DNA of 64,000 bases from a virus. Shown here in pieces: positions 1 to 41,634 of this stretch (its first letter is position 1; each line of letters starts with the position of its first letter). Both the position numbers and the translations under genes were made by a program. The DNA is taken from IMG/VR virus record IMGVR_UViG_3300028392_000036, positions 1 to 64,000 of that record; one strand, given 5' to 3'. Under the pieces are notes generated by a model that saw only the letters and a program-made list of their open reading frames with translations, was not told where the DNA came from and made no database searches.

Positions 1-2034
1 CCAGTTGATAGTGAAAAAACACACCCATACTATTCAAACCCAAAACACCTTGATAATTACGGTAATTTACAAATCAAACCAGGTCAAGGCAAAGGCGTTG
101 CTGGCGGTCCAAACATGGCCGAAGCCGGCATGGGCGACGTAGTGAAAAAAGTTGGCAGTGCAGTTAAGAAAGCAGGCAGTGCTGTGTTGAACCGCCTGGG
201 CCATGGTGACGATCAAGCCATGCGTAAAGACCTACAACGTAAAATGGGCCTGCCACAGACTGGTGAAAAGCCACAACAAGTTAAAGAAAAAATGTCACCT
301 GCCAAGGCAAAAAGTTTTGCGGCATTGGCACCACCCACAGATAAAATCACTTTTGCCGACAAGATTGCCGGCGCCAAAAAGGAAGTTGACGAAATGTTGG
401 GAGATGTGGCGGCTGAAGCTATCAAAGGCGTACTCAGCCCCAAGCAAAAGAAATTAGATAAAAATCACAACGGCAAACTAGATGCCAACGACTTTGCTAT
501 GTTGCGTCGAGGTGGCAAGAAAGAAGTTGCTGACGAAGGCTGGGACGAAATGGAAAAAGATGTCAAGAGTCGAGCTGACTCTCCGAGAGTTGGTTCAATC
601 ACTCACGGTCACAAACACGATATTGAGCACACTGCTACAGGTCGTAAAGTAACACGTCGCGTTGATGCACAAGGCAATTCAGTTGGTTCTGACACTGATG
701 CAGAAGGTAACACAATTGAAAAACGTGGTCGTGGACGTCCAAAAGGTCCAGAAAAAGCTCCTGAGCGTGTGACCGGCAAAGCCACCAAACACAAAGGCGG
801 TCGCAAGATGGCTGACGAAGATTTTGATCCAGCTGATCGTGGTGAATACGATCAAGAAGGCGAAATGGCCAAAGACACTATCAAGACCGTTGTGCGTCAT
901 GCACAGGCCTTGGAAAAGATCCTGGGCGACAACAACAACTTGCCAGAATGGGTACAATCCAAGTTGGCCAAGATTGAAAGCATGATGACTGCGGTAGATG
1001 ACTACATGCAGAATCAAGACAGCGATCAAGATGACGAAATGTCTGTGGGCGAAGAAAAAACTTCTACTCGTGACAACCGTGCTGAACGAGCCGGCAAGAA
1101 AGTCACCAAAGACATTGAGTATGATGAGAAAAAGAAAGATCACATTCATGGCAAGAAGCGTGGCTCTGAAGATGCCCGGGCTGAGAAAGCCGGCAAAAAA
1201 GTAGCCAAAGATATTGAATACGATGAAAAGAAAAAGAAAGTCAAAGAGCAAGGCGGAACAGACACTCCCACAGCATCAAGTGGCTTTAGTTATGGTCAAG
1301 GCATTTATGATTCAATGAATCATGAACTAGAAACCATGATTCGAGAAAGTATGAATGTTAGCATGAGTATGAACACTGATGCCAATGGTGGACCGAGCAA
1401 AAGCATAACTGTTACTGCCACAGATGATGACGCATTAAAATTAGGTGAGTTGTTGAAAAACGCCGGCCTAGGTGGACACAATCTCCCAAATGTCGAAGGT
1501 GGTGCTGATCTAGATCATCCTGGTGCAATTGAAGTAAATGGCACAATGGATGCCGAAGGTGCGGAAGCACTTGCCGATCAAATTCGCCAGGCCATGGGAG
1601 ACCACGGTCACGAACACGACGGCGGCGAAGTATGTCCAGATTGCGGCCAAGAAGAATGCGGTTGCGACGAAGTGGACGAAGCATATGGTGACAACGCTGT
1701 GAGCCAAAACGAACCTGCATATCCTACCAACACCGAAACATCACATGATGCATTCCAATATTCAGGTGGTTTGAACAAGCCCAAGTCAAGTGGCATGGCA
1801 ACTATTCCTGTTACTGACGTTCAACTCGATGGTGAAGACAAGTTTGCCAGCATTGCACGTTTGCGTGAGATGGCCGGTATTAAAGAAGCCAAGAAACCTG
1901 ACTTCCTGGACGTTGACAAAGATGGCGACAAAGCAGAGCCATTTAAGAAAGCAGTTGACGACAAAAAAGCAGCCGGCGACAAAAAAGTTGCCGAAGGTTT
2001 GATGGCAGAACTAGCACGTTTTAAGAAAGCATAA
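1..2034 (+). CDS. Large charged modular virion/internal head protein (5'-truncated at window edge)
   Basis: Frame is open from position 1 (38 codons upstream of ATG 115). K/D/E-rich, with EF-hand-like DKNHNGKLDAND and DVDKDGDKAE, AT-hook KRGRGRPKG, duplicated RAE.AGKKV.KDIEYDEKKK, CPDC..ECGC and many hydrophobic-X-E sites. Confidence 0.6.
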   Translation, partial: PVDSEKTHPYYSNPKHLDNYGNLQIKPGQGKGVAGGPNMAEAGMGDVVKKVGSAVKKAGSAVLNRLGHGDDQAMRKDLQRKMGLPQTGEKPQQVKEKMSPAKAKSFAALAPPTDKITFADKIAGAKKEVDEMLGDVAAEAIKGVLSPKQKKLDKNHNGKLDANDFAMLRRGGKKEVADEGWDEMEKDVKSRADSPRVGSITHGHKHDIEHTATGRKVTRRVDAQGNSVGSDTDAEGNTIEKRGRGRPKGPEKAPERVTGKATKHKGGRKMADEDFDPADRGEYDQEGEMAKDTIKTVVRHAQALEKILGDNNNLPEWVQSKLAKIESMMTAVDDYMQNQDSDQDDEMSVGEEKTSTRDNRAERAGKKVTKDIEYDEKKKDHIHGKKRGSEDARAEKAGKKVAKDIEYDEKKKKVKEQGGTDTPTASSGFSYGQGIYDSMNHELETMIRESMNVSMSMNTDANGGPSKSITVTATDDDALKLGELLKNAGLGGHNLPNVEGGADLDHPGAIEVNGTMDAEGAEALADQIRQAMGDHGHEHDGGEVCPDCGQEECGCDEVDEAYGDNAVSQNEPAYPTNTETSHDAFQYSGGLNKPKSSGMATIPVTDVQLDGEDKFASIARLREMAGIKEAKKPDFLDVDKDGDKAEPFKKAVDDKKAAGDKKVAEGLMAELARFKKA
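1078..1236 (+). repeat. Intragenic duplication encoding RAE(R/K)AGKKV(T/A)KDIEYDEKKK x2
   Basis: Two near-identical 20-codon copies at about 1078-1137 and 1177-1236. Confidence 0.85.
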
Positions 2035-2035
2035 T

Positions 2036-2209
2036 ATGACAACTAACCAACCTTTTACCGCAGGCTTAACAACACCTCCAGTGATGAACCCACACAGTCC
2101 AGCCACTGGCGGCTATAAACAACAACCTGTGTATATTCCAGGTGTGTTGGACCAATCACGCAACCTGTTTCAACCGGTTGTTGCTATTCCACCTGAGGAT
2201 AAAAAATAA
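2036..2209 (+). CDS. Small Pro-rich hypothetical protein (57 aa)
   Basis: ATG 2036 follows the upstream stop. MTTNQPFTAG...PPEDKK; TAA overlaps next ATG (TAATG). Below the ORF-track cutoff. Confidence 0.65.
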   Translation: MTTNQPFTAGLTTPPVMNPHSPATGGYKQQPVYIPGVLDQSRNLFQPVVAIPPEDKK

Positions 2210-2538
2210 TGGCTGCTGTTCAAGTAATCAAGGACGCACCAGGCAATATTTTGTGGACCACAGACAAGGCTGAAATCAATGCTGAAGGTGCCAATGTTAC
2301 CTATCAAGTTAGTTTGACACAAACAACTTGGATTCAGGCCAATGGCGTGCCAGCCAATACTGCCATGCCCACAGGTAATCTATACGCCAATGCAGTATCT
2401 GTGCCCAACGGGACAACACATCAACTTTATGTTGGAGCAGGTAATTATTTGATTATAACAGGCAATAATTTCACAGCCGTGGCACTAGGCACACAATCAT
2501 CTGCCACTTTTGGTGTGTACGGATCAACCTCGAGTTAA
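2209..2538 (+). CDS. Hypothetical beta-rich virion protein
   Basis: 109 aa, T/A/G/N-rich, GAGGA RBS upstream. Confidence 0.6.
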   Translation: MAAVQVIKDAPGNILWTTDKAEINAEGANVTYQVSLTQTTWIQANGVPANTAMPTGNLYANAVSVPNGTTHQLYVGAGNYLIITGNNFTAVALGTQSSATFGVYGSTSS

Positions 2539-2540
2539 CA

Positions 2541-2921
2541 ATGCGAGCACGTGAATTCGTAGCCGAAGATCGCAAAGGCGAAATACCCGGTGGGCATGAC
2601 AATTCCATGCCTGGTGCATTTCGTGTGCGTGACAACGGCGGCTACGACAGAACCAATCACATGAATCGCATGATGATGGCCATGGCCATGCATGATGGCA
2701 AAGATGCTAAACCTATTCCTAGAGATAAAATGGATCCTGCATCCTGGGTTGAAAAATACAACACAGCACACCCTTACACTGATGAAGAAAGCAACATGAT
2801 TCAAGGCGCCATGAAAACCATTGGATCTGACACACATCATGTGATCAGCGATCATCGCAGTCTAGAACATCCAGAGATACACAAAGTCAGTCCAGTGAGC
2901 GCATTCAAAGGATATAGATAA
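2541..2921 (+). CDS. MRAREF-family paralog 1 (putative internal head protein)
   Basis: N-term MRAREFVAE, C-term SPVSAFKGY; paralogous to the next two ORFs. Confidence 0.6.
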   Translation: MRAREFVAEDRKGEIPGGHDNSMPGAFRVRDNGGYDRTNHMNRMMMAMAMHDGKDAKPIPRDKMDPASWVEKYNTAHPYTDEESNMIQGAMKTIGSDTHHVISDHRSLEHPEIHKVSPVSAFKGYR

Positions 2922-3298
2922 TGCGAGCCCGTGAGTTTGTTACAGAGACCAGGGCAACTCTCACTCCAGACGAAGCCGGACCAATGCGTCAGACTTATAT
3001 TCTTCCTGGCATTAGAAACAATGATGCTTACCACACCTATAGACTCAGCATGGCCATGGCACGTGCTCGAGCAGATGTGGGTGGTGTAACAGATGATTTT
3101 CCTCCATTCCCTGAACAAAGTGCATTTGGACAAAATGCTGTGGTGTCGGGATTTGACGATACAGTGATTCCTGTGTTGGATCAAGCACTAAAGTTGACCG
3201 GCACACCAGGCGGCAAAGTCATGGTCAGCACACCAAAGAGTGAAGAGCCACCGGGCATTGACACACAGAGCCCTATAAAGGCATTTGGGGGATACTGA
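2921..3298 (+). CDS. MRAREF-family paralog 2
   Basis: MRAREFVTE ... SPIKAFGGY; translationally coupled (TAATG). Confidence 0.6.
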   Translation: MRAREFVTETRATLTPDEAGPMRQTYILPGIRNNDAYHTYRLSMAMARARADVGGVTDDFPPFPEQSAFGQNAVVSGFDDTVIPVLDQALKLTGTPGGKVMVSTPKSEEPPGIDTQSPIKAFGGY

Positions 3299-3684
3299 TG
3301 CGAGCAAGAGAATTTATTCCTGAAGGACGCACAGGCAGTTTCACAGCGGATGTGGGCCTAGCCCTGCCTGGTGCTTTTAAAATTCCTGCATTAAAAAATC
3401 AAGATCCATATTTGCAGTATCGTTTTGGCGTGGCCATTGCCGGTGCCAAAGGTGCTAAGGCACGTGCTCAAGATGGTGTGCCACCATTCGATGGCCGTGA
3501 ATCAGTATTTGGTGAAAACGAAATTGTAGTGAGTTATGATCCCGAAGCAGAAGTCTGGATCAAGGATGCACTCAAGAGCATGGGCATGCCACCAAGCGAT
3601 GCTGTGCGCATTGGCACACAAGCGTCGGAAGAGGCTCCAGACGTGGTCAAGGCCAGTCCAGTACAGCCGTTCAAAGGTTACTAA
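3298..3684 (+). CDS. MRAREF-family paralog 3
   Basis: MRAREFIPE ... SPVQPFKGY; coupled (TGATG). Confidence 0.6.
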   Translation: MRAREFIPEGRTGSFTADVGLALPGAFKIPALKNQDPYLQYRFGVAIAGAKGAKARAQDGVPPFDGRESVFGENEIVVSYDPEAEVWIKDALKSMGMPPSDAVRIGTQASEEAPDVVKASPVQPFKGY

Positions 3685-3721
3685 TCTTGGCTAAATACTA
3701 GCCTATTTTAGAGGTATCTTT

Positions 3722-4543: not shown

Positions 4544-4616
4544 TCCCAATCAATATCCTGTATACCCCGAGGACGATGGCTACGATCGACATCGTAATCC
4601 CTATAGTCCGGTGTAA
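4527..4616 (+). CDS. Putative 29-aa peptide MPQPTDPNQYPVYPEDDGYDRHRNPYSPV
   Basis: ATG overlaps the nuclease 3' end and the ORF fills the gap before the radical SAM gene. Confidence 0.45.
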   Translation: MPQPTDPNQYPVYPEDDGYDRHRNPYSPV

Positions 4617-4651
4617 ATATAGCATGTTAAAATTGAGCATGTAAATACTGC

Positions 4652-5791
4652 ATGTCCAATTTCTTTTGTGCCGCACCCTGGCGCGGCCTACACATCAATC
4701 CACAAGGCAATGTTAAAACATGTTGTGCTGGCAACCCTAATATGCTGGGCAATCTCAACACAAACACAATAGAGGAAATCTTAAACAACGATCTCATGAC
4801 CGAGATACGTGCTAGTTTGGCACAAGGTCGACCACACAAGTATTGTAGCAATTGTGTGCAAGCTGAACGTTTTGGTGCAGATTCTGAACGTGCCTGGCAC
4901 AACAATGTAAACCCCAACTTTGATTATGCTGCCGCAGGTGATCAATATCATTATCCTGTAATTGTAGATGTGAGATGGAATACAACTTGTAATCTAAGTT
5001 GTAACTACTGTGGGCCCAGCTGTTCAAGCAAGTGGGCCAGCCTCGAAGGCGTGCCATTCCGGTCAGGCACAAGACCTTATTACGAACAAGTGTGCGACTT
5101 TATTGAACAACATTACGAGCACGTATACGAAGTAGCACTAGTTGGAGGCGAACCGTTGCTGTTGCCCGAGAATGAACGTTTGTTGGATGTTATACCAGAA
5201 ACTGCTATTGTGACACTAATCACAAACATGAGTGTGGATCTAGAAAAGAACCGAATATTTCAAAAACTTACCAAACGAAAAAAAGTAGGTTGGTCGATGA
5301 GTTTTGACAACATTGGTGATAGACTAGAATATGTACGACACGGTGCAGACTGGAATTTATTACAGCAAAACTTACAAACGGTCAAAGAACTCATGCGCAA
5401 TAACGGGCACTGGGGAGGAATACACGCGGTGTACAACATTTATAGCGCCACACGTCTTTGTGAGTTTAGACAGTTTGCTGAAGATACTGGGACCACAGTG
5501 CTGTGGCAGAACTTGTTTCAGCCCGACTATCTTGACCCGTTCCTGCATGGCCCTAGAGTAGCTAAATTGGCCAGCGAAGAGATCAATCGATTCTATGCTA
5601 TGGGTATTGCCACACCTGCCGAACGTCAATTCTTTGATCAGGCATTGGAAAAATATAGTCAATCGAGTCTAGCAACGTTTAGTCCTAGACTACGTCAAAG
5701 ATTTCGTGAACACATCCAAAACAACGAAAAATTATATCATCCAGACAAGGCAGGTGAGTTTGCAAGGTTATGGCCGGAGTTGAACATATGA
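4652..5791 (+). CDS. Radical SAM protein with N-terminal SPASM/twitch-like Cys cluster
   Basis: CAAPW..KTCC..CSNC N-terminal domain; CNLSCNYC (CX3CX2C); GGEP. Confidence 0.9.
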   Translation: MSNFFCAAPWRGLHINPQGNVKTCCAGNPNMLGNLNTNTIEEILNNDLMTEIRASLAQGRPHKYCSNCVQAERFGADSERAWHNNVNPNFDYAAAGDQYHYPVIVDVRWNTTCNLSCNYCGPSCSSKWASLEGVPFRSGTRPYYEQVCDFIEQHYEHVYEVALVGGEPLLLPENERLLDVIPETAIVTLITNMSVDLEKNRIFQKLTKRKKVGWSMSFDNIGDRLEYVRHGADWNLLQQNLQTVKELMRNNGHWGGIHAVYNIYSATRLCEFRQFAEDTGTTVLWQNLFQPDYLDPFLHGPRVAKLASEEINRFYAMGIATPAERQFFDQALEKYSQSSLATFSPRLRQRFREHIQNNEKLYHPDKAGEFARLWPELNI

Positions 5792-7377
5792 TAGGCGCAA
5801 AGAATACCCTCGACACGGTACTGGTCAAAGCACCACACCGTAAAGAAACATTTACTGAACAAGAACTTGAGGACTTTGCTCGGTGTGCCGATCCGGTAAC
5901 AGGTCCAATGTACTTTATGGACAACTTCTTCTACATCCAACATCCTGTTCGCGGCAAGATGCTGTATCATCCCTACGAATATCAAAAACGACTAATCAAC
6001 AACTATCATAACAATCGTTTTTCAATCAGTCTAATGCCTCGACAAACAGGCAAGTCAACATCAGCGGCTGGATACTTGTTATGGTATGCCATGTTTGTGC
6101 CTGATGCTACCATTCTAATTGCCGCACACAAGTACCTAGGCGCACAGGAAATTATGCAACGTATTCGTTACGCTTACGAACTATGCCCTAATCATATACG
6201 TGCTGGTGCTACAAGTTACAACAAAGGATCTTTAGAGTTTGACAACGGTTCGCGTATTGTGAGTCAAACAACAACTGAAAATACCGGTCGTGGTATGAGT
6301 ATTACACTCCTGTACTTAGACGAGTTTGCGTTTGTGAGACCCACAATTGCCAAAGAGTTCTGGACTAGTATTACACCTACACTGAGTACTGGTGGTAAAG
6401 CAATTATCACTTCAACACCCAACTCAGACGAAGATCAATTTGCCTATATTTGGAAGGGTGCCAACAAGATTGAAGACGAGTTCGGCAACCCAAGACCCAA
6501 TGGTCTGGGCACAAACGGATTCAAAGCATTCCGTGCATTCTGGCGTGAGCACCCAGATCGTGATGAAAAGTGGGCTGAAGAACAACGCAGCCAATTGGGA
6601 GACGAGCGTTTTCGTCGAGAGATGGACTGTGACTTTGTTATCAATGACGAAACACTAATCGCCCCTATTAAACTACTGGAACTAGAAGGCCAAGAACCCA
6701 CACACAAAACTGGACAAGTACGTTGGTACAGGCCTGTTGATCGAGACCGGATGTATATTGTAGCCCTTGACCCTAGTCTAGGTACAGGTGGTGATCCTGC
6801 GGCCATACAAGTGTTTGAAGCAGAAACTACTGAGCAAGTGGCAGAATGGCGACACAACAAAACTGATGTGCCCACTCAAATTAAAATCCTAGCAGATATT
6901 ATCAAAGAAATACACTCAGTGGTCAAGGATGAAAAGAAGATTTATTACTCAGTGGAAAATAATACCTTAGGCGAAGCCGCATTGATTTCTATTGCAGAAT
7001 ACGGAGAAGAAAACATACCCGGCTACTTCCTTAGCGACAACTCAGTGCAGAGCTCAAACGGACGTAGAATCCGTAAAGGATTTACCACTACCAACAAGAG
7101 CAAGATTGTGGCCTGTAACAAGTTCAAGGTACTGGTTGAATCTGGGCGTATGAAGCTGTACTCCAAGCCCTTGATCACTGAGTTAAAAACATTTGTGGCA
7201 GCCGGATCCAGTTATGCGGCTAAAATTGGGGAAACAGATGATCTTGTGATGGCTGGTTTGTTGGCTACTCGTATGCTTATGTTACTACAATCCTATCACG
7301 CAGACCTAAATTCCTACCTTAAAGACCATACGGATAATATAATTGAGCCATTTCCGTTCATTGCAATGATGCGATAG
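5788..7377 (+). CDS. terL: Terminase large subunit (T4 gp17-like)
   Basis: Walker A PRQTGKS, Walker B LLYLDEFAF, ITSTPN coupling motif, nuclease ALDPSLGTGGD and DDLVM. ATG 5788 overlaps the upstream stop. Confidence 0.95.
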   Translation: MIGAKNTLDTVLVKAPHRKETFTEQELEDFARCADPVTGPMYFMDNFFYIQHPVRGKMLYHPYEYQKRLINNYHNNRFSISLMPRQTGKSTSAAGYLLWYAMFVPDATILIAAHKYLGAQEIMQRIRYAYELCPNHIRAGATSYNKGSLEFDNGSRIVSQTTTENTGRGMSITLLYLDEFAFVRPTIAKEFWTSITPTLSTGGKAIITSTPNSDEDQFAYIWKGANKIEDEFGNPRPNGLGTNGFKAFRAFWREHPDRDEKWAEEQRSQLGDERFRREMDCDFVINDETLIAPIKLLELEGQEPTHKTGQVRWYRPVDRDRMYIVALDPSLGTGGDPAAIQVFEAETTEQVAEWRHNKTDVPTQIKILADIIKEIHSVVKDEKKIYYSVENNTLGEAALISIAEYGEENIPGYFLSDNSVQSSNGRRIRKGFTTTNKSKIVACNKFKVLVESGRMKLYSKPLITELKTFVAAGSSYAAKIGETDDLVMAGLLATRMLMLLQSYHADLNSYLKDHTDNIIEPFPFIAMMR

Positions 7378-7395
7378 TGCGCTAAATATAATACC

Positions 7396-9636
7396 ATGGC
7401 AACAACGAACTCTATATCACAACAACTGCTGGATTTGCTGGCTACACGCAACTTCCATCCCGAAATGCTGAACAAGATGGGACAACCATCTAACGCAGAA
7501 GACGCCAAAACATTTACGTTTGACTATATTTCGGGTGCAGGTAAGAACTATGGTACTATGGTTATTGTACTAGACAATGACAACGAAATGAAGATCATGT
7601 ACGGGGACAACCTGGGCCGTACCATGGAAGGTGATGACAAGAGTGAGTTCTTTGATTTCTTACAACATTTGAATCAAAAAGCCACAAGCAATCGTTGGAC
7701 ACACAGCATTGCCGATATCAACCAACTCAAGCATACCATGCAAGGCATGGCAGCCATTCAAGAAGGCCTATTTGAAGGCTACTATGGTACACGTAAGGTT
7801 AGCTATGCTGGCGAACCCACTCAAGCCCGACTACAAATTGTACACAGCCAGCCCTTGGGCGAAGGTGATGCACGTTATCGCCACATTGACCGTATGTTTA
7901 TTGAAACAGCCGAAGGTGAAAAGTTCAAACTGGGCTTCAAGAGTCTAAGTGGTGCTAGAGCCATGCTGGAACATGTTCGCCAAGGCGGCAAGCCTTACGA
8001 TATTCGTGGTTGCCATATTTCGGAAACAGTAAACGAAATTGCTGTGCTGAGCCGATTCAATCGTGCCAGTGCAAATCGCATACTAGAAGGCGTCACACAA
8101 GAACTAGTAACAGAAGCACAGGCTTACTATCAAACCCTACGTGAAAATCTCAAGCACATGGCTAGCGGCCGTGGCTATGCCCGGTATTTTGAATCGTGGC
8201 ATCCGGCTACCATAAACGAACAAGAAGGTGTTGTGGACAACATCAAGACTCTGTTTATTGAACAGAGTATAGACAGCCGTATTGAAGCGGCATTACCACT
8301 GCTGGCCAAGATTCAGCAAAGAGGACATGAAATGAAAGAAGCAGAAATATTTGAAAACTGGATTAACAATCTATCAGAAGGTACTTGGACATTGCCAGAA
8401 ACTCCTGAGCAATTGGACAAACTCAAAACATTAATGACCGGCGAATTGATTGTTGGGCCTGATGCTACCAACGCAACAGAACAACTGTATGATCTAGTAG
8501 GCGATGATGAATTGTTTGATCGACTGCATGCTCTTGCCGAACAAGATCCCAGAGCCAATGCCTGGAACGATACTGAAGTCATGCAACGCTTGGCCGAACT
8601 GGGTGTTGAAATGCCTGAGCCCACAGCACCAGGCAATCCTGCTGAACCCCAAACAGGCGCAACTGCTCCTGTGGTACCACAACAAGGTGTGGCAGAAAGT
8701 GATACACCAGCACAACCAGCAGTGAAAATTATCAACGACTTTGATGAAGTAGTTGCAGAATTCGATCATGTACCAAAAGGATTTAGAGATGCACTCCGTA
8801 GTACTGAGTTTGATGCTGTTCAATGGCTTGCAGATGTAATGAAAAAAGATCCCGACTTTGATATAACCACTATCGAAAAAATAGTTTTAGCACCCAATGT
8901 GTCTGGTTACCCAGAGCAATATGTAATTGATGTTACAAAATATTTAGATGCCTTGGATGAAGGTGACAACCTGGCCACATTCGAAGACATCAACAGCCTG
9001 CGCAACTTGGCCGGATTGCCAGTAGCAGAAAGTCGCTTGATGGACAGTGCTGGTGAAACATTACAACACATTCTGGGCCGTTTCAAACACGAAGTTAAAA
9101 ACTTTGAAGCCGACGGCGATCTCAATGATGAGTTGTATCATGCCTTGTATGATTACTACAGTGACAATGGTGAAATGCCTTATGGTGTGGCCAAAGCACG
9201 TGATGGCGATCCTTACAACTGGATCAGCGACAAGTTATCAGCCGAACTAGGTGTAAACGAAAATCTTATCTCTCCCATGGCTATGCCTGTCACTACCGAA
9301 AGCGGCTCATGCAACATGACTGCTGAAGGCGAGTACTGTCCAGAACACGGCCTTGCAGAGTGCGGAATGGGCATGCCAGCAGGTATCATGGGCGAAGAAA
9401 AAGTAGATGAGATCATTGATTATGACACACTAAATCAATTAGCATCGCATCCAATGGCAGGTCCTCTTGCTGCCGCAGGCGGTGCCGCACTTGGTGCCAC
9501 AGTTGGCAAAGGAATTGAAAAACTTGGCAATATGTTTAAAGATAGAAAAGAACAAACCGCACTTGATCGTGCCGCTGGACTCAAAGAAGGCGATGCTGTG
9601 CTGGCAAGAATAAAATCATTGGCTTTGCTAAAATAA
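7396..9636 (+). CDS. Large acidic modular virion/head protein
   Basis: 746 aa after terminase; late-type TAAATA upstream; repeated X-X-E-(G/S) sites, QQGVAESD linker, Cys motif CNMT..YCPEHGLAEC. Confidence 0.55.
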   Translation: MATTNSISQQLLDLLATRNFHPEMLNKMGQPSNAEDAKTFTFDYISGAGKNYGTMVIVLDNDNEMKIMYGDNLGRTMEGDDKSEFFDFLQHLNQKATSNRWTHSIADINQLKHTMQGMAAIQEGLFEGYYGTRKVSYAGEPTQARLQIVHSQPLGEGDARYRHIDRMFIETAEGEKFKLGFKSLSGARAMLEHVRQGGKPYDIRGCHISETVNEIAVLSRFNRASANRILEGVTQELVTEAQAYYQTLRENLKHMASGRGYARYFESWHPATINEQEGVVDNIKTLFIEQSIDSRIEAALPLLAKIQQRGHEMKEAEIFENWINNLSEGTWTLPETPEQLDKLKTLMTGELIVGPDATNATEQLYDLVGDDELFDRLHALAEQDPRANAWNDTEVMQRLAELGVEMPEPTAPGNPAEPQTGATAPVVPQQGVAESDTPAQPAVKIINDFDEVVAEFDHVPKGFRDALRSTEFDAVQWLADVMKKDPDFDITTIEKIVLAPNVSGYPEQYVIDVTKYLDALDEGDNLATFEDINSLRNLAGLPVAESRLMDSAGETLQHILGRFKHEVKNFEADGDLNDELYHALYDYYSDNGEMPYGVAKARDGDPYNWISDKLSAELGVNENLISPMAMPVTTESGSCNMTAEGEYCPEHGLAECGMGMPAGIMGEEKVDEIIDYDTLNQLASHPMAGPLAAAGGAALGATVGKGIEKLGNMFKDRKEQTALDRAAGLKEGDAVLARIKSLALLK

Positions 9637-9822
9637 TATAAATAAACATATGAAAGAAGTGTGTGTAGTAGCGCACACTTCCGTAAACAACAAGTTAGGC
9701 AAAATTCTCTACCGTAAAGGTAGGAAACACAGACAGGCTGTGTTAAAATAACCTTGTAGGCAACACATTTAAGTAAATCTTAAATTTTAAAATCATATTA
9801 ACGCATAGAAAGGCAACACAAT
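9637..9822 (+). promoter_or_regulatory. TATAAATA late promoter plus structured 5' leader of SSB gene
   Basis: TATAAATA at 9637-9644; hairpins at 9656-9681, 9709-9723, 9726-9744, 9767-9785; AGAAAGG RBS. Confidence 0.65.
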
Positions 9823-10815: not shown

Positions 10816-10817
10816 TC

Positions 10818-10842
10818 AACAAGGCCTTCGGGCCTTGTTTTA
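10818..10842 (+). terminator. Rho-independent terminator
   Basis: AACAAGGCC-TTCG-GGCCTTGTT-TT, with a C(UUCG)G tetraloop. Confidence 0.9.
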
Positions 10843-33216: not shown

Positions 33217-33217
33217 T

Positions 33218-33730: not shown

Positions 33731-34751
33731 TATCTCAGACATTCGTGATGTACACTTAGAAATATCTAGTTTATGCAATGCCGCCTGTCCATTGTGTCCT
33801 AGAAACTTTTACAGTTATCCTTACAACGATGGATACATTGAACACAACATGACGTTGGCAGAAGCAAAACAAATATTTGCCCCGGCCTTTTTACAACAAA
33901 TTAACACAATAAACATCAACGGAAATTTTGGAGATGCAGTAATGAATCCTGAAACTGTTGATATTGTTGAATATTTTAAAAAAGCAAATCCTGATATCAC
34001 AATCATAATGAGTACCAATGGTGGTGCTCGAGACACAACGTACTGGCAACAATTGGCTGTGTTAGGAGTCCAAGTTGATTTTTGCCTGGATGGTCTTGAA
34101 GACACACACAGCCTGTACAGACAAAACACGATCTACGGCACAGTGATCAAAAATGCCAAGGCATTTATTGCAGCCGGCGGCTTGGCTGTCTGGAAAATGA
34201 TTCGGTTTGATCACAACGCTCATCAAATTGATCAGGCTCGTTTGCTGAGCAAGCAAATGGGTTTTGCAGATTTTAAGATTCATGACCACGGTCGTGATCA
34301 GGCACCGGTATTTGATTTGAACCAACAAGTAAAACATACTATTGGTAAACCACAACAAACTGAATTTTCAATATTGTGGAAGTCAAGAACACAAGATGAA
34401 GTTTTGCTTGAAGATGTGGTTGGTCAGCGCACGCCAGCACCGATCAAGTGCAAGGTTGTGTCAAGGAAATCTTTGTATGTGTCCAGCACTGGCGATGTTT
34501 ACCCTTGCTGTTGGCTAGGATTCAATCCAAAAAATTATGGACATGGTAATTACCATCAAGCGGCCAATGCACAGTTCAAACACTTTGTGGTCGAAAACAA
34601 TGCACTTGACCATGATCTTGAGCATTGTATTCAGTGGTTCAACAACATAGAGCAAAGTTGGCACAAGCCCAGTTTTGAATCAGGACGACTGATTATCTGC
34701 AATGACGTCTGTGGCGTTAAGACGCAACACCTTCAATCACAGCAAAAGTGA
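33723..34751 (+). CDS. Radical SAM protein with C-terminal SPASM/twitch
   Basis: CNAACPLC, GNFGDA, STNGG, LDG, GDVYPCC. Confidence 0.9.
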   Translation: MYNISDIRDVHLEISSLCNAACPLCPRNFYSYPYNDGYIEHNMTLAEAKQIFAPAFLQQINTININGNFGDAVMNPETVDIVEYFKKANPDITIIMSTNGGARDTTYWQQLAVLGVQVDFCLDGLEDTHSLYRQNTIYGTVIKNAKAFIAAGGLAVWKMIRFDHNAHQIDQARLLSKQMGFADFKIHDHGRDQAPVFDLNQQVKHTIGKPQQTEFSILWKSRTQDEVLLEDVVGQRTPAPIKCKVVSRKSLYVSSTGDVYPCCWLGFNPKNYGHGNYHQAANAQFKHFVVENNALDHDLEHCIQWFNNIEQSWHKPSFESGRLIICNDVCGVKTQHLQSQQK

Positions 34752-35634
34752 ATACAGGTGCATCAGTGGCTGTACCACTTGCGGCAGAGAATGTGATTCT
34801 GAAACTGCCATCTGCCACTGCACTGATGTATGTTTCGTAGATGTTGGTACCTGATTTCTGATTGACGATGATCACATCATTTGCAGTCACTAGACTGTTG
34901 GTCACTGTGAAAGAAGTATATGCAGAAGTACCTGCCGCAGAATACAAAGTGATAGCACCGCACTTTTTGTTGAGTGTGACACCGGTTGTGCGTGATGATG
35001 TTTGTGTTACAGCACCACCAGCACCAGCAACAAAGCCAACTCCTAGCCCTGCACCAGCCAGTAGTGGTCGAATCAAATCATAGATGGCAATTGTGGTACC
35101 TGAATCCACACTGCTGAAAGCAAATCTATAGGTTCCAGTGGCACCAAATGTGATAACGTTGGCAGCATATCCTTGTATGCCAGTGGTTCCCACACTCACT
35201 GCACCGGGTAATGTAACTGTGTAAGCAGTATTGGTCACAACAAAGTCAACATAAACAACACCTTCTGATCCTGAAGCAGGCCAGTTTGAAAAACTCAAAC
35301 TAACATTAGCAGTGGGCGCAATCAACTGATACTGTCCAGCTGAATAATCAATGGGGATAGCACCTGCAGTCACAGTTTGTTGCACATAGGTGTAACTGAC
35401 ATCTTGTAATTTAACGGCGTATATTAAATTATCCGCCATGTTGTTGTCAAGTGTGGTGCCGGTTAACGCGGCTTTGAAAACACCTTTGTTTTCCAAGTCA
35501 GTGATCTCATTTTTTGCTGTTGTAAAGTTAGTTTTGATGTTGGTAAAATTATCTCTAAAGCCCTGTGTGTTATTGGGCTGGCCAGCAACGGGGTATGTAC
35601 CGTCTATGTTGTTGGGGTTGATTTGACTTGTCAT
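34717..35634 (-). CDS. Virion structural protein
   Basis: YPVAGQPNNTQGFRDNF N-terminus; T/A/G-rich beta body; minus-strand TAAATA at 35661-35656. Confidence 0.65.
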   Translation of the reverse strand: MTSQINPNNIDGTYPVAGQPNNTQGFRDNFTNIKTNFTTAKNEITDLENKGVFKAALTGTTLDNNMADNLIYAVKLQDVSYTYVQQTVTAGAIPIDYSAGQYQLIAPTANVSLSFSNWPASGSEGVVYVDFVVTNTAYTVTLPGAVSVGTTGIQGYAANVITFGATGTYRFAFSSVDSGTTIAIYDLIRPLLAGAGLGVGFVAGAGGAVTQTSSRTTGVTLNKKCGAITLYSAAGTSAYTSFTVTNSLVTANDVIIVNQKSGTNIYETYISAVADGSFRITFSAASGTATDAPVFTFAVIEGVAS

Positions 35635-35704
35635 TGAGTATTCCTGTATAATAGATATTTATTAGAATCCCTAAAGCACTAAATAATCCAAAGGCCCAGA
35701 TCGA

Positions 35705-35953
35705 ATGCAGAAAAAGACCCGAAGTTTGCTGGAAGAATTAGATTCAATGTATGTGGAGCGGGATCGCCGCCTGATCATTGAAACTAGAGCTGACAGCGTG
35801 ATTGTCAGTGCCATACGCTTGATTGAACAAATTGAATCAGAGTTTGGACCTGAGCAAGCAGACAACCTCACACGCAAACTGCTCAATGCCATACGCACCA
35901 AAGATGCCGGCAAGTTTTCAAGATCTGTCAGGAGAACCAATGCAGATTCATGA
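35705..35953 (+). CDS. Hypothetical protein
   Basis: 82 aa, helical; TAAATA at 35680-35685. Confidence 0.7.
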   Translation: MQKKTRSLLEELDSMYVERDRRLIIETRADSVIVSAIRLIEQIESEFGPEQADNLTRKLLNAIRTKDAGKFSRSVRRTNADS

Positions 35954-36689
35954 AATAACCAAGCGTAACCTAAACGAAGCAGGATTTGGAGCAGGATTGG
36001 CCAGCGGCCTAACTTCGGCCCTAAGCAAGGTTGGAGTTGGTGGACCTGATGCTAGTGCGTATCAACAATCCAAAATAGGAGGCCCAGGTGGACAACCGGG
36101 TGCCTACAAAGCCACGGCTGGCCTGGTCAAAACACTAACAACAACCATGCAAACAGCCTGGGCACAGACTATAAAATCATATCTAGAACAAACCAAGGAT
36201 GAACAGGGTAATCCTGTCATGGGCATTGCACAGTTACCTCCTGCCGCACAATCAATGTTGCACAAAGATCTAATGGCAATGATCAATAACACCATACGTC
36301 CCAGTATGCGTAACTTTGATTATCAGACCATGGGCAATCAATCTAACGATCCTGATGTAGTGGGCGCAGCCGCAGATATCAAAGATACTATCGCTAAAAA
36401 TGCAGACAAAATTTATCAACTCACAGTCAGCGGCACTGCTAAAACAGCCCAACTGACTCAGTTGTTTCAAGACATGGTAACCAATGGTATAGCTCCAGCA
36501 CAGAATTTATTGACTTTTACAACACAAAGAATAACTCCTAAATGGGGCAGAGACCCCACAACTGGAGAGATCACCATTGACACTCGCGGCGGTCAACCTG
36601 AAGTATTCGATTCATCCAATCCTCAACACAAAGAAGCCTGGGCCGATATACAAAATGGCATGGCCTCAAAAGGCCATCCTCCGGTATGA
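35940..36689 (+). CDS. Putative internal head protein
   Basis: GGAG RBS; N-term MQIHEITKRNLNE-AG followed by a Gly-rich segment. Confidence 0.55.
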   Translation: MQIHEITKRNLNEAGFGAGLASGLTSALSKVGVGGPDASAYQQSKIGGPGGQPGAYKATAGLVKTLTTTMQTAWAQTIKSYLEQTKDEQGNPVMGIAQLPPAAQSMLHKDLMAMINNTIRPSMRNFDYQTMGNQSNDPDVVGAAADIKDTIAKNADKIYQLTVSGTAKTAQLTQLFQDMVTNGIAPAQNLLTFTTQRITPKWGRDPTTGEITIDTRGGQPEVFDSSNPQHKEAWADIQNGMASKGHPPV

Positions 36690-38593
36690 TCAATCTCAAC
36701 GAAGGTGGCAATGTTTTCAAAGATGCACAAGGACAGCCACTAACACAACGCATCAAACAAACTGATATTCCTTCCACAGTGGCCTGGTTGGAAAAACTTA
36801 CTGGACTAGATCTGTCAGCTACCAAGGACGAATTAGGTGTCCCAGTTAAATGGTTAGGATCAACTGGCAAAAAACCTGACTCAGGTGATCTGGATCTTGC
36901 TGTAGATTCCAACGAAATAACCAAGGCCGAGCTAAAAGGCCGACTAGATGCCTGGGCCACAAAGAACAAGCAAGACCCCAAAGCCTGGACAAAACTCACA
37001 GGCGAAGCAGTACATTTTAAAACACCCATACAAGGTGATCCCAAGCGTGGTTATGTACAAACGGACTTTATGTTCATGCCCAACATGGAATGGGGCACAT
37101 TCTGGCTGGGTGGCGGTGCAGGATCAGCATACAAAGGTGTGTTCCGTAACGTACTGATGTCAAGTATTGCCAAAGCACTAGGACTCAAAGCCTCAGCCAA
37201 AGGTATTATCAGTCGTCAAACAGACAAAATGGTCACAATGGATCCAGATCAAGCCGCTGGTATCTTGTTGAGCCCTAATCTCAATAGCCGTAAAAATCTC
37301 GCCACAGTAGAAAGCATTTACAAAGCACTGGCAATGGATCCTGACCGTGATGCCAAACTGGCAGACTTCCGTGAGTATCTTGCACGTGAAGGCGTAAAAG
37401 AACCCGAACAGGGAGTGGCCGAAAGTGATGTCAACTTCTTGGCTCGCCTGCGTGACCGTATTGTGAACCAGGGCTATGTTGCCCTGGTAGAAGCAGAACA
37501 AGCTGGTGTGGGTGGCAGAGCCAAGGGCATCGAGCACCTGGAAGATCTAGTGTTCCGTCGTGGTACACAAGGCATCCGAGACGCACTCGAAATTGTTAAA
37601 CATGCCACAACACAGCCGTCAACTGTGACAGCTAAATGGGACGGCAAACCTGCTGTGATATTTGGACGCAAACCTGCCACTGGAGAGTTTGTGCTAACTG
37701 ATGGATCGGGCTTTGAAGCCAAAGGCTACGATGGTCTAGCAACAAGTCCACAAATGATGGCTGACATACAAAGCCATCGACCGGGCGACAGAACTGAAAT
37801 AATTCAAATCTATGCCACATTGTTTCCTATACTAGAAGCCGCATTGCCGCCCAACTTCCGTGGCTATGTCAAAGGCGACTTGCTGTACATGCAGACACCT
37901 CCTAATATTTCTGGCAACTATGTGTTCCGTCCTAACACAGTAGAATACAAAATTCCTGCCAAGTCCCCACTGGGACAGCGCATCGGAAACTCAGATATCG
38001 GCATTGCTATTCACTCAATGTATGCCGACGCAGGTGATGCACGTCAACCGTTAAGTGGTGTACGTTTTAACGACGTTCCAGGATTGATGTTAGAAAAGCC
38101 AGCAAGTCCCAAGCAGTTACAAACTGAAACCAACGCCGAAAAACAACTCAAGGCGTTGATCAAAACACATGGCAAAAACATAGATATCTTGTTTAATCCT
38201 ACAGAATTGCGAGCACACAAGATTACAGATCTAGCAAAACTGTGTGTGGACTTTATCAACACCAAAGTTGGCAGCCCGCTTAATGGTGCTACACTATTGC
38301 CCGAGTTTGGAAAGTGGCTAGAAACCAAGGTGACCCCACAAAAGTTCCGCAATATTGTGGAATACTTGAATAGCCCTACATCTAATACCCCTGCACTGGC
38401 AGCCGCATTTAATGCGTTTAACTTGTTACACGATGTCAAAATGCACTTGTTACAGCAAGCAGATACCGAGCACCCGGGACAAGAAGGCTGGGTCATGGCC
38501 ACCCCTGTAGGCTATGCAAAAGCAGTAAACAGATTTGATCCCAACGCATTTGCCGCTCAAAACCGCCTGAGAAACAATCCTCAACAGGCGTGA
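36686..38593 (+). CDS. Pol-beta-like nucleotidyltransferase fused to ATP-dependent ligase-like domain
   Basis: LGSTGKKPDSGDLDLAV plus VQTDF; then HLED, KWDG, KGDLL, EGWV, KAVNR; QGVAESD linker between the two. Confidence 0.65.
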   Translation: MINLNEGGNVFKDAQGQPLTQRIKQTDIPSTVAWLEKLTGLDLSATKDELGVPVKWLGSTGKKPDSGDLDLAVDSNEITKAELKGRLDAWATKNKQDPKAWTKLTGEAVHFKTPIQGDPKRGYVQTDFMFMPNMEWGTFWLGGGAGSAYKGVFRNVLMSSIAKALGLKASAKGIISRQTDKMVTMDPDQAAGILLSPNLNSRKNLATVESIYKALAMDPDRDAKLADFREYLAREGVKEPEQGVAESDVNFLARLRDRIVNQGYVALVEAEQAGVGGRAKGIEHLEDLVFRRGTQGIRDALEIVKHATTQPSTVTAKWDGKPAVIFGRKPATGEFVLTDGSGFEAKGYDGLATSPQMMADIQSHRPGDRTEIIQIYATLFPILEAALPPNFRGYVKGDLLYMQTPPNISGNYVFRPNTVEYKIPAKSPLGQRIGNSDIGIAIHSMYADAGDARQPLSGVRFNDVPGLMLEKPASPKQLQTETNAEKQLKALIKTHGKNIDILFNPTELRAHKITDLAKLCVDFINTKVGSPLNGATLLPEFGKWLETKVTPQKFRNIVEYLNSPTSNTPALAAAFNAFNLLHDVKMHLLQQADTEHPGQEGWVMATPVGYAKAVNRFDPNAFAAQNRLRNNPQQA

Positions 38594-38656
38594 TTTTTCC
38601 AAACTGACTAAATAAAAGCAGGTCCTACAAGACCACTAACTTAAAGGAAAATCGAA

Positions 38657-39097
38657 ATGGCAACATTTACAAAAATAAACGGTACTACCCAACCAGTATT
38701 TGCACTGGACGTAGCAAATGGTTCTATCGCTGGTACAGCAAACGTCGCGGCCCAAGGCCCAGTGATGTTGTCTGGCCCAAAGCTAGACTTCTTCTCATTG
38801 ACAGCAAACACAGCATTGACAAGTGCAGGTAACGTTAACGGTTACTTGAACAACGTGTTCCAAGCTATCCAATCTGGTGCTGGCATTGTTGGCGGCGGTG
38901 CAGGCGGAACAATTGCGTTCTACCAAGCAGGCCCAACAGCAGGTTTAATCAGTCTTGCTATCTACCCAAGTGGTGCTTACACAACAGCAACATTGGTAGC
39001 GGCTGCTCAAACAGCCAACGCAACTGGTGGTTTGAACATCGGCATCCCAACTGGTAACGTTTCTAACGTGGCCACATTCACTGGCTTGCAGACTTAA
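38657..39097 (+). CDS. Abundant virion structural protein (decoration-like)
   Basis: A/G/T-rich; own TAAATA (38609), strong AAGGA RBS, highly biased codons and a terminator. Confidence 0.6.
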   Translation: MATFTKINGTTQPVFALDVANGSIAGTANVAAQGPVMLSGPKLDFFSLTANTALTSAGNVNGYLNNVFQAIQSGAGIVGGGAGGTIAFYQAGPTAGLISLAIYPSGAYTTATLVAAAQTANATGGLNIGIPTGNVSNVATFTGLQT

Positions 39098-39117
39098 TAA
39101 CTAATTTTTAGTTAATG

Positions 39118-39151
39118 AACCCTGGACGTAAAAACTCCAGGGTTTCTTTTT
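39118..39151 (+). terminator. Rho-independent terminator
   Basis: AACCCTGGA..TCCAGGGTT-TCTTTTT. Confidence 0.85.
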
Positions 39152-39170
39152 GGCATTAAATACTCATAGA

Positions 39171-39602
39171 ATGAAAATCGTATGCCGTACTCTTTTTGAT
39201 TGTAGTCTCACTGGCGTGACCGGCCATTTCAGGCCAAGCGAAATTCCTTTTGTGGATCGTGCTGGTCAACAGGTGCGTAGTCAACACGATTGGAATCATT
39301 CACGCAATCAACAACGCAATTGGGAAACACTACTACAGATCATAAGTCTGCGTACACAGCCTGCTGACCTTACGGTACCTGTACATCGAGACGGAGTATG
39401 GGAATTTGAATTCAAGAGCGAAAGTGAAGGTGTATTTGAGATGTACGGAGATCCTGATCCACTAGCAGGACTCCGAGTTGATTGCGAAGGTGTGCCAATG
39501 ATGTTGAATCTCACTGAACAACCAAGTCTAGCACCAACTATTACTACCAATGGCAAAGGCCAAAACATTTGGTTCATTGCGGTAAATAATGCATTGGAGT
39601 AA
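39171..39602 (+). CDS. Hypothetical protein
   Basis: TGVTG, RNQQRNWETL.Q..SLR, W.FEF. Confidence 0.7.
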   Translation: MKIVCRTLFDCSLTGVTGHFRPSEIPFVDRAGQQVRSQHDWNHSRNQQRNWETLLQIISLRTQPADLTVPVHRDGVWEFEFKSESEGVFEMYGDPDPLAGLRVDCEGVPMMLNLTEQPSLAPTITTNGKGQNIWFIAVNNALE

Positions 39603-39604
39603 TC

Positions 39605-39868
39605 ATGGTTGACACAACTGATATCGAAAAGAAAAGTCTCGAAGCCCACGTTGAATTATGTGCTCAACGTTATACTGCCTTAGAACAACGCATCGATGAT
39701 GTCAAGCAAGACACAGCAGAATTAAAGTCTACTATACAAGAAGTGCATAGATTGGTACATAAAATGAGTGACAATCGTAACACACAGTTGATTGGTTGGG
39801 GAGTAGGAATCATTGGATTCTTGACAGCCGTCATAGGATACTTGGTCACTCACTACGTACTAAAATGA
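39605..39868 (+). CDS. Coiled-coil plus C-terminal TM protein (XhlA/holin-like)
   Basis: LEAHVELCAQRY coiled coil, single C-terminal TM helix. Confidence 0.55.
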   Translation: MVDTTDIEKKSLEAHVELCAQRYTALEQRIDDVKQDTAELKSTIQEVHRLVHKMSDNRNTQLIGWGVGIIGFLTAVIGYLVTHYVLK

Positions 39869-40350
39869 CACGAGACCAGAAATTAGAACAATGGGCCGAA
39901 CGTGAGCTCAAACGCAACATCGATTCTATTATCATAGACAATGGTGCAGGCGGTATCGTGGTTTTTGGCAAATATTGTATTGAATCTATTGACAATAGAT
40001 TTAGTGTTAGTACTTGGGATAGAGAAATACACAGTTTTAGCAGTAAAAAAACAGCCATGAGTTGGTGCACTGCTGATCACCAACAACAGTACAATTTAAG
40101 TAATTTGATACTGGTGTTGGACCGTAAAAAACAGGCATTAGCCGCAGATATATACTGTCGTAAGACAGTGGGCGAACGTGGACGCCATGAGAATTTTTAT
40201 GAAATCATAAACATGAAAATTCAACCCAAAATAGACCTATATAATTCTGTAAATGCAGAATTAGAAAATTGTGTAAATCGGGCTAAATATCTACAGATTA
40301 GAGGATTCAATAATGAAACTGCAAGAACTAGCGGCTCCCAAGCCAAGTAA
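39865..40350 (+). CDS. Hypothetical protein
   Basis: ATGA overlap with the upstream gene. Confidence 0.65.
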   Translation: MTRDQKLEQWAERELKRNIDSIIIDNGAGGIVVFGKYCIESIDNRFSVSTWDREIHSFSSKKTAMSWCTADHQQQYNLSNLILVLDRKKQALAADIYCRKTVGERGRHENFYEIINMKIQPKIDLYNSVNAELENCVNRAKYLQIRGFNNETARTSGSQAK

Positions 40351-41272
40351 ACAAATCGCCAAAGTATTCGAAAGTTACTTTGGTTCACGTATCCGTTTTG
40401 ACCAATTAAACCGTGGCCAAACTCGTGTGATGTTGGGCAAAGTACAAGGTGTATTAAAAGAACACCGTGGCACAACAGCTCGTCACCGCAGTGAAACAAA
40501 TCCCAAATATTTGCAACTGGTAATGATGGAACAGGCATTGAGTGCTAGACTACAAGAAATGCAAACCACACTTCCACCAAGTGGCGGAGTCGGTGCTCCT
40601 GCTGGTACCCCTGCACAACCCGGTGCCATTGGTGCCGCCACTCAGCCAGGTGCCGCACCTGCTGCCGGTGCAAAGCCACCACAAGATCCTAAATTGGCAG
40701 CCGCGTTAAAGAAATCTACTGCCGGTCAAGCACTGACCCCAGAAGAACAAAAATTAATAGCTGGTGCCGCAATGATGCAAGCCGAAAGCCGACTACGTCG
40801 TGCAATGAAACGCCTTAACGAATCAGAAGTACAACAGGCTCAAGTTGTGTTGGCCGCTCAAGACATGGTTGACAAAATGCAAGGCATGTTGGAAGATGTT
40901 TCAGAATTGCAATTTAAAGAATTGCCAGCTCTGGTCGACTCGATCAAGAACCAAGTTGGCATTGATCAAGCCACACAATTTAATACAGATGCCACTGCCG
41001 CCTTGACTGGCCTGATACAAAATCTGGGAGGTGCCAAGCAACAACTTGATGCCGCTCTAGGTGTTGTAACTGGCCAAGCTCCGTCAGGTGCCGCGGCCGC
41101 TGGTGCAATGGGTGCTGACATTGCCGCTGGTGCAGGCGATATGGCCGCTGCCGGTGCCGACATGGGTGCTGACATGGGTGCTGACATGGGTGCAGATGCC
41201 GCACTGGATGCCGCTGCCGCAGAAGCCGGTGCTGAACCTCCTGCTGCCGCATTAGGCCGCGCCAAGAGATAA
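40313..41272 (+). CDS. Putative prohead core/scaffold-like protein
   Basis: MKLQEL leader; helical domains separated by P/A/G linkers; RLQE, QAES, RLNES sites. Confidence 0.5.
   Translation: MKLQELAAPKPSKQIAKVFESYFGSRIRFDQLNRGQTRVMLGKVQGVLKEHRGTTARHRSETNPKYLQLVMMEQALSARLQEMQTTLPPSGGVGAPAGTPAQPGAIGAATQPGAAPAAGAKPPQDPKLAAALKKSTAGQALTPEEQKLIAGAAMMQAESRLRRAMKRLNESEVQQAQVVLAAQDMVDKMQGMLEDVSELQFKELPALVDSIKNQVGIDQATQFNTDATAALTGLIQNLGGAKQQLDAALGVVTGQAPSGAAAAGAMGADIAAGAGDMAAAGADMGADMGADMGADAALDAAAAEAGAEPPAAALGRAKR
41153..41197 (+). repeat. 12-bp tandem repeat (GGTGCNGACATG, encoding GADM)
   Basis: About 3.7 copies in frame. Confidence 0.85.
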
Positions 41273-41634
41273 TGAAAATTTTTGAAGTTGACAGTAGCAT
41301 GGGAATGGCGCCGCCGCCTAACCCAGCACAACTGTCAGGATTGGTACAGTTTCTTAATGGTCGTGCTAATGATACCAATGCCAAAAAAGAAATCAGCCAG
41401 GATGCGTTTATCAAACTGGCCAATGATTTGGACATCAATGTTACTCCCCAAAATCTAGCCGATATTGTGAGTCAAGAACCACTCAGCAACCTGTTGGAAC
41501 CAATGGATCCAAATACAAAAATTTTAGCATTCAAGGGCGCTGGTACCCCAGATGTTGCCATGCCCGTAAACAAAGCACAAGACATTGTGGCTTCGGCAGC
41601 CAAATCGGCAATGAACAAAGACCGCGGCGTCTAA
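41272..41634 (+). CDS. Hypothetical (putative head-associated) protein
   Basis: MKIFEV leader; translationally coupled. Confidence 0.6.
   Translation: MKIFEVDSSMGMAPPPNPAQLSGLVQFLNGRANDTNAKKEISQDAFIKLANDLDINVTPQNLADIVSQEPLSNLLEPMDPNTKILAFKGAGTPDVAMPVNKAQDIVASAAKSAMNKDRGV

Follow-up and report, generated by a model that had tools for sequence, protein, structure and literature searches.

Modular proteins on a giant-phage contig

The window analysed here comprises 64,000 nucleotides, the first 64 kb of a 142.9-kb viral contig in IMG/VR (record IMGVR_UViG_3300028392_000036; CheckV completeness ~41%), and carries on its + strand the six open reading frames (ORFs) with which this report is concerned: P0001 (1-2034), P0002 (7396-9636), P0003 (35940-36689), P0004 (36686-38593), P0005 (40313-41272) and P0006 (41272-41634). 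An initial annotation of this DNA had proposed that the six products are polyproteins, loaded into the prohead, cleaved at hydrophobic-x-Glu sites (h-x-E; P3 is the hydrophobic position and P1 the Glu) by a T4-type prohead protease and released as separate effectors. The strings on which that proposal was built were all found in place, including QQGVAESD (8680-8703) in P0002 and EQGVAESD (37406-37429) in P0004. The six were compared with several hundred related viral contigs from metagenomes, G001-G004 being among the large relatives. Within the contig itself, no module common to any two of the ORFs was detectable.

Judging from the P0002 region, which is homologous to and syntenic with virion proteins of Rak2-like phages, we place this uncultured giant lake phage in the Rak2-like/T4 superfamily. 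P0002 is flanked by the genes for the terminase large subunit (5770-7377) and a single-stranded DNA (ssDNA)-binding protein (9823-10815), an order that matches that of Pectobacterium phage CBB. A megablast of positions 36000-42000 returned no near relative at the DNA level among 50,697 GenBank phage records, PADLOC gave zero matches, and an ESM Atlas search matched unnamed viral clusters only (0.76-0.78).

P0002 has no N-terminal leader and consists of a virion-protein domain (aa 1-400), a Pro-rich linker and a series of appended modules. Over residues ~95-383 it matches the virion structural proteins that Rak2-like jumbo phages (RaK2, GAP32, CBB, PA5oct and others) encode, with a PHROG profile match to phrog_13484 ('virion structural protein', E = 4.8e-10) and tblastn matches to 80 jumbo-phage records. 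One of these homologs, CBB gp276, is homologous and syntenic with the first 430 residues of P0002; mass spectrometry of CBB virions detected it through 8 peptides (PMC5259590). The homologous domain (CBB gp276, GAP32 gp270, phrog_13484) occupies the same slot between the terminase and ssDNA-binding protein genes; CBB gp276, at 429 aa, stops where the Pro-rich linker of P0002 begins, whereas the ~310-residue modular tail of P0002 is confined to the uncultured lineage.

This tail begins at junction 1, QQGVAE (8680-8697; predicted coil, low predicted local distance difference test (pLDDT) score), where the conserved part ends and a variable insert (aa 435-522) starts. The insert closes with ALDE, and this end, together with the unit that follows it, GDNLATFED-INSLRNLAGL-PVAE, a tag helix with a cut-type site, takes up 8950-9030; it is close to the E of LDE that P0002 and its other orthologs become homologous again. 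Next comes a conserved portable helical module, HILGRFKHEVKNF... (9031-9261; pLDDT 65-84), which ends in GVNE. In the remainder (9262-9633), a Cys-rich piece that ends in IMGE (9385-9396) gives way to a variable tail, and the protein closes with LARIKSLALLK (9601-9633), a conserved C-terminal tag. An AlphaFold2 model built with the ortholog alignment resolved the module at residues 555-621 (pLDDT 65-84), gave the tag as a short helix (aa 529-538) and showed the inter-module stretches around residues 434, 522, 545 and 622 as coil or with low confidence. Codon identity among orthologs rises to 0.73 in the last 16 codons, against 0.49-0.61 in the rest of the gene, and just past the stop codon there is a perfect copy (9637-9644) of TATAAATA, the T4 late promoter; because of these two features, a DNA-level signal may overlap the end of P0002.

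P0001 is a mosaic Lys/Glu-rich protein that is truncated at its 5' end by the end of the contig. Its full-length orthologs have ~70-350 extra residues, with a conserved leader of the type MTFFYDLNKKLDSIREKPETTHKQLNE, ending in QLNE, followed by shuffled modules. P0001 itself contains two EF-hand-like loops, DKNHNGKLDANDF (457-495) and DVDKDGDKAEPF (1909-1944), an AT-hook-like KRGRGRPKGP (721-750), a Cys-rich piece (1633-1665) and a tag plus site, IARLREMAGIKE (1852-1887). RGRP motifs like that of P0001 recur in mosaic proteins of related contigs (L048, L049, L063 and L065). The AT-hook-like motif and its recurrence suggest DNA binding, either inside the head or in the host. The modules of P0001 and P0002 are small and non-enzymatic (AT-hook-like, EF-hand-like, Cys-rich), and they look more like parts of DNA-associated internal head proteins.

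Joints as breakpoints between modules

An alignment of 26 non-redundant P0002 orthologs (611-968 aa) revealed conservation of the first ~430 residues and the Pro-rich linker, up to a terminal QQP[V/I/M]AE or EQG[V/M]AE. Beyond the Glu of this first joint, relatives carry unrelated inserts or no insert at all. The inserts close with another xAE, and the conserved GDNLATFED-INSLRNLAGL-PVAE comes immediately after it, while in the insert-free orthologs the first joint passes straight into GDNLATFED.

In order to quantify this arrangement, orthologs were compared all against all by BLAST, and the ends of high-scoring segment pairs (HSPs) were scored for falling exactly on the Glu of an h-x-E site. 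Indel boundaries taken from gaps in multiple alignments proved too noisy, with 20 of 414 events located at a site where the per-position background is 4.4%, because unrelated inserts align together and gaps slide across repeated xAE; HSP-end statistics were therefore used instead. For the P0002 family, 98 internal homology ends fell exactly on such a Glu versus 27 expected, and when distinct 6-residue contexts were counted the figures were 51 and 17.0 (3.0-fold). Controls gave 1.19-fold for non-hydrophobic-x-Glu and 1.46-fold for hydrophobic-x-Asp. The bias was weaker in the P0001 family (1.97-fold). At breakpoint sites, P3 is preferentially Met or Val and P2 preferentially Ala; small P1' residues are enriched at those of the P0001 family (0.55 vs 0.34) and not at those of the P0002 family (0.47 vs 0.47). 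The prediction that indels would begin and end at QGVAE/xxE sites thus agrees with the HSP ends, and the related claim that the linkers are cassette boundaries agrees with inserts that start and end at xAE. That the joints act as boundaries where relatives gain, lose, swap and split modules is, on these comparisons, well supported.

The helical module of P0002 illustrates the exchange. HILGRFKHEVKNF turns up on related contigs in no fewer than 8 further protein contexts, always preceded and usually followed by h-x-E, in proteins that start with leaders such as MKLFE, MNMRDLIDLFE, MKKLADYFVE and MKDMLKKLSE. These proteins also hold P0001-type modules (AT-hook, KPDFLDxDKDG and MNVSTNMSS...LLKxAG), and shuffling of modules thus crosses the borders of gene families. 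The tag plus FKHEVKNF module found no tblastn match in the 50,697 GenBank phage records.

In P0004, the same kind of joint corresponds to a gene boundary. This protein, which begins with the leader MINLNE (36686-36703), combines a Pol-beta-type nucleotidyltransferase (aa 7-236, with a GS-x-DxD motif) with the ligase-like domain DUF6267 (PF19782; residues 282-617, 110.3 bits against a Pfam gathering cut-off of 27), which contains KWDG (37634-37645). Between the two lie GVKE, EQGVAE and then SDVNFLARLRDRIVNQGYVALVE-A (37391-37492), that is, a leader-like segment between two sites, and the joint VKE, [V/M]AE, LVE is kept in 65 of 65 orthologs. Whole-record searches identified relatives in which residues 1-250 and 284-609 are two genes, adjacent in G003 and nearby in G002. 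There, the first gene starts with MQINE-GGNIF or MILNE-GGDVF, and the second with MYFEFVEYLME-A or MRLLELKELME-A, just ahead of the conserved ligase-like core. Each half of the split form has a leader of its own; thus what is an internal joint in P0004 corresponds to the border between two genes together with a new N-terminal leader. In the T4-like phage Melnitz, the DUF6267 homolog begins with a Glu-ended leader, as do the genes on either side of it. The homolog in S-CAM1 starts right at the core. A PDB sequence search with P0004 gave no match, and a large protein search for stand-alone DUF6267 yielded, among the matches listed, close fused orthologs only.

Genes around the split pair in relatives start with MKINDILRE, MRINE (after an upstream start) and MKIRDIVSE (L234 1784-2443 and 4006-4416; L233 6129-6821), and whole gene clusters seem to share the Glu-ended leader. 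With regard to the 'separate effectors' of the initial annotation, the term is credible for the nucleotidyltransferase and ligase-like pair of P0004, to which it should be restricted. This pair, fused or split, is a candidate virion-delivered activity for nucleic-acid repair or modification.

The repeated linker had also been offered as evidence of a shared cassette boundary. By itself it is at the level of chance, since 0-4 7-mers common to two unrelated ORFs are expected in shuffled proteomes of equal size and the single QGVAESD falls within that range. The two copies are identical at 20 of 24 bases, as might be expected if the joints were DNA-level recombination signals for cassette exchange and the peptide a by-product. 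We rejected such a signal on codon identity at identical residues, which is 0.49 at junction 1 and 0.58 at the tag, against 0.61 in the N-terminal domain of P0002. Furthermore, the differences between the two linkers (three of them synonymous) and between the leaders of three paralogs described below are mostly synonymous. Since codon identity is no higher at the junction or tag and the paralog leaders vary synonymously, selection acts on the peptide rather than on a DNA or RNA signal, and the recombination-signal explanation is very improbable.

Leaders, tags and neighbouring features

A T4-type leader, about 5-20 residues long and ending in h-x-E, is present on the genes starting at 35940, 36686, 40313, 41272, 2541, 2921 and 3298 and on full-length P0001 orthologs. 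The six ORFs had been described as having short Glu-containing leaders and/or modules separated by hydrophobic-x-Glu sites; leaders are confirmed for P0003 to P0006, are seen in the full-length orthologs in the case of the truncated P0001 and are lacking in P0002, and the three genes at 2541, 2921 and 3298 had been missed. In P0003, the start codon (ATG at 35940) has AGGAG 6 nt ahead of it, and the leader MQIHEITKRNLNE (35940-35978) precedes a Gly/Ala-rich stretch. Across 68 related loci this leader measures 13-19 aa and nearly always ends in [L/I/V]-x-E, while the sequence that follows is variable. The stretch right behind it in P0003 (35979-36100) is hydrophobic, AGFGAGLASGLTSALSKVGVGG; relatives differ here in sequence and are similarly Gly/Ala-rich, and it may represent a membrane-active or glycine-zipper segment.

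P0005, a coiled, Ala/Gly/Asp-rich protein, begins with MKLQE and has KVFE (40361-40372) as a further site; among PHROG families it matches one with the annotation 'virion structural protein', and tblastn gave no match. The small protein P0006 begins with MKIFE (41272-41286). Three tandem paralogs on the + strand (2541-2921, 2921-3298 and 3298-3684) carry the 9-residue T4-like leaders MRAREFVAE, MRAREFVTE and MRAREFIPE, which differ from one another by synonymous codons. MRAREF[V/I]xE is conserved in 65-69 related loci, with varying sequence beyond the Glu; likewise, MKIFEV, MKLQEL..KVFE and MRAxEF[I/V/L]xE are conserved across relatives.

The h-x-E motif as such is not enriched, and by the annotation's own yardstick, its frequency relative to that in other proteins, the generic claim fails. 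P3 is hydrophobic at 43.4% of Glu in the six ORFs versus 41.0% in the rest of the contig, and M-x(2-11)-h-x-E occurs at 34 of 202 ORF N-termini versus 47 for the same pattern with Asp. These chance-level counts would suit cytoplasmic proteins whose leaders and joints arise by chance or from a constraint on translation starts, with no head cargo system at all. The virion evidence, which covers one of the six ORFs, could be read in the same way, as could the distance in G001 between the orthologous genes (82-123 kb) and the head module (35-37 kb). However, the leaders are conserved across orthologs despite their variable length, P0002 and P0005 both match virion structural protein families, the CBB homolog is in virions, and structural genes are scattered in Rak2-like phages. 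A cytoplasmic role is hence improbable, though less so than the recombination signal.

An amphipathic tag recurs as IARLREMAGI (1852-1881), INSLRNLAGL (8989-9018) and LARIKSLALLK (9601-9633). The pattern, which had been noticed at the outset, is real: the ORFs of all loci contain 81 matches versus 5-14 after shuffling, and of 62 distinct contexts, 37 have the Glu of h-x-E or the C-terminus of the protein no more than four residues beyond the tag. A fourth string, LARLRDRI (within 37424-37492), had been counted with it and falls outside the pattern; it is better read as part of the leader-like segment inside P0004. A second tag class, D(E)DAxxLAxLLKMAGMG, sits inside a module. We know of no T4 counterpart of a recurrent C-terminal xxLRxxAG[L/I] tag.

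Two further features accompany these genes. A gene with an MAYS..V.DHYENPRNVG start and CGD...C...C motifs (42151-42531 in the window; L233 261-641; L235 8062-8514) keeps its place downstream of the P0005/P0006 pair in all three phages, directly after the pair in G003 and with 1-2 small ORFs between in the window and G001. From these motifs, it looks like an IscU/NifU-type iron-sulfur scaffold. In addition, CTAAATA, which resembles the T4 late promoter, occurs 13 times versus 8.25 expected. Of the 10 copies on the + strand, 7 (3691, 7382, 35679, 38608, 40283, 45856 and 53370) lie at or just upstream of + strand gene or operon starts, those of P0002, P0003-P0004 and P0005-P0006 included, and the heptamer may be a late promoter. 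The T4 late promoter itself is not enriched (2 matches versus 2.2 expected).

Head protease, proposed cargo route and known systems

No Peptidase_S77 was detected on this ~41% complete contig. A protease of the gp21 family (PF03420) is encoded by four of five large relatives (85-91 bits), including G001 (at 34694-35149), which also has orthologs of P0002 (55%), P0004 (75%) and P0005 (70% identity). In G001, G002 and G004 a scaffold-like gene, Glu-rich and with abundant h-x-E sites, comes after the protease gene, and then a gp23-like capsid gene, the N-terminal sites of which (ALLE-G, ILE-N and LKE-N) resemble those of T4 gp23 (PLLE-G, IFE-N and LTE-A). The T4-type cleavage context of the initial annotation is thus in agreement with the protease, the T4-like leaders and the capsid propeptide sites of the lineage.

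The reading we prefer is a T4-type cargo system in which both the leaders and the inter-module joints are substrates of the head protease. Entry into the prohead core would be mediated by a leader ending in h-x-E or, for P0002, by the virion-protein domain. There, the gp21-type protease would take off the leader and cleave the [V/M/I/L]-x-E joints exposed between modules; the pieces would stay with the DNA inside the head and accompany it into the host. We infer all four steps, packaging, leader cutting, cutting at internal joints and injection, from the comparisons above. Packaging and leader removal are likely, internal cutting into separate pieces could equally well go either way, and the chain as a whole is, in our estimation, slightly favoured.

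Several observations count against this proposal. The contig has neither a protease nor a capsid gene; the virion evidence consists of CBB_276, a cultured homolog of one domain only; the generic motif stands at chance level in the six ORFs; and the ssDNA-binding protein, which is clearly cytoplasmic, starts with MASLAE. Within-domain h-x-E sites are conserved as much as junction sites, so that conservation fails to single out the junctions. The breakpoint counts are non-independent events, because the orthologs have common ancestry, the AlphaFold2 model of P0002 is of low confidence overall (mean pLDDT 50), and MINLNE-GGNVFK in P0004 could simply be the start of a folded enzyme. Finally, in phage SPN3US the known cuts remove N-terminal propeptides only, protease self-cleavage aside (PMC10052503).

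The main rival draws on the same points: these would be ordinary, uncut multi-domain virion or internal proteins, trimmed at most of a leader, in which [V/M]-A-E is a favoured flexible linker. Modularity with breakpoints at linkers is what any domain-shuffled family would be expected to present, generic h-x-E is not enriched, the SPN3US cuts are confined to propeptides, and delivery without cutting is the case for the N4 virion RNA polymerase and for several polyvalent proteins (PMC5512222). Set against this, the N-terminal leaders end by the same P3/P1 rule as the joints, the split gene has the leader rule in place of the internal joint, and breakpoints favour h-x-Glu over x-x-Glu or h-x-Asp. 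Moreover, T4 Alt is cut at both ends and the T4 core proteins many times. We therefore consider uncut proteins a possible, though rather unlikely, explanation.

Under the preferred cargo reading, modules could be added, lost, swapped, fused or split because each has its own joint and often a C-terminal xxLRxxAG[L/I] tag. A bolder version, which we advance tentatively and think doubtful at present, is a portable 'load-and-cut' grammar consisting of a leader, [V/M]-A-E joints and the tag as a second, previously undescribed head-docking signal, whereby modules are packed, cut free and injected independently. The tag would then be comparable in logic to the cargo-loading peptides of encapsulins, and, if this grammar is true, giant lake phages would carry a large and rapidly reshuffled arsenal of injected proteins. 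Proteins that are injected with phage DNA act ahead of any phage gene expression, and so decide early conflicts with host defences. In T4, a 10-residue leader suffices for loading a protein into the head, and the present lineage appears to extend this logic to strings of modules with a simple joining rule. If cutting is confirmed, the injected proteome of uncultured giant phages would become predictable from sequence, and T4-type capsids could be loaded with several proteins according to a compact design rule.

A close parallel is the T4 cargo that carries a capsid-targeting sequence (CTS), namely IPI, IPII, IPIII and Alt, together with gp22, gp67, gp68 and gp24, all cut by gp21. The T4 CTS reads MKTYQEFIAE (PMC8442874), and in the T4 record gp24, gp67, gp68 and gp22 begin with MAKINELLRE, MEGLIE, MLLIPE and MLKEQLIAE. 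As in T4, a short leader ends in (I/L/V)-x-E, the lineage has a gp21-family protease, and diverse, fast-evolving cargo stands behind a conserved leader; the internal proteins of T-even phages are themselves diverse and defence-related, with the CTS as the sole common part (PMC3012670). Alt, which starts with MELITE, is cut at ITE-6 and LTE-619, i.e. at both ends (PMC5694885), and core proteins are cut at many sites, which parallels the several sites per protein here. The differences are that the present proteins, known from sequence alone, are long mosaics with internal sites between several modules, and that in P0002 a virion-protein domain takes the place of the leader. Searches of Pfam and PHROG matched none of the six proteins to IPI, IPII, IPIII or Alt, and the likeness is, as far as such searches reach, one of layout and not of descent.

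Polyvalent proteins (Iyer, Burroughs, Anand, de Souza and Aravind, 2017) similarly join several unrelated domains into a single chain, and their genes lie close to those for packaging; their packaging and delivery with DNA have been predicted, and processing into parts proposed (PMC5512222). Two effector-type domains in one chain, by which such proteins are recognized, are found in P0004, whereas the other five consist of small modules, most of them non-enzymatic. The proposed processor of polyvalent proteins is an embedded zincin-like metallopeptidase, while here it would be the head protease acting on sites in the joints; Pfam detected no embedded peptidase domain in the six proteins. The inner-body and ejection proteins of phiKZ, 201phi2-1 and SPN3US likewise belong to the head cargo of giant phages and are trimmed by a gp21-related protease that cuts after Glu, with several sites per substrate. 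These phages belong to another lineage with a protease of family S80, their gp175/gp245 cut at S/A/G-x-E or A-x-E with a small P3 in place of the hydrophobic one seen here, and the cuts reported take off N-terminal propeptides and leave no set of several retained modules. We found no paper describing the present grammar of modules and joints. What would be new, then, is the extension of the T4 capsid-targeting and polyvalent-protein themes to modules joined by cut sites.

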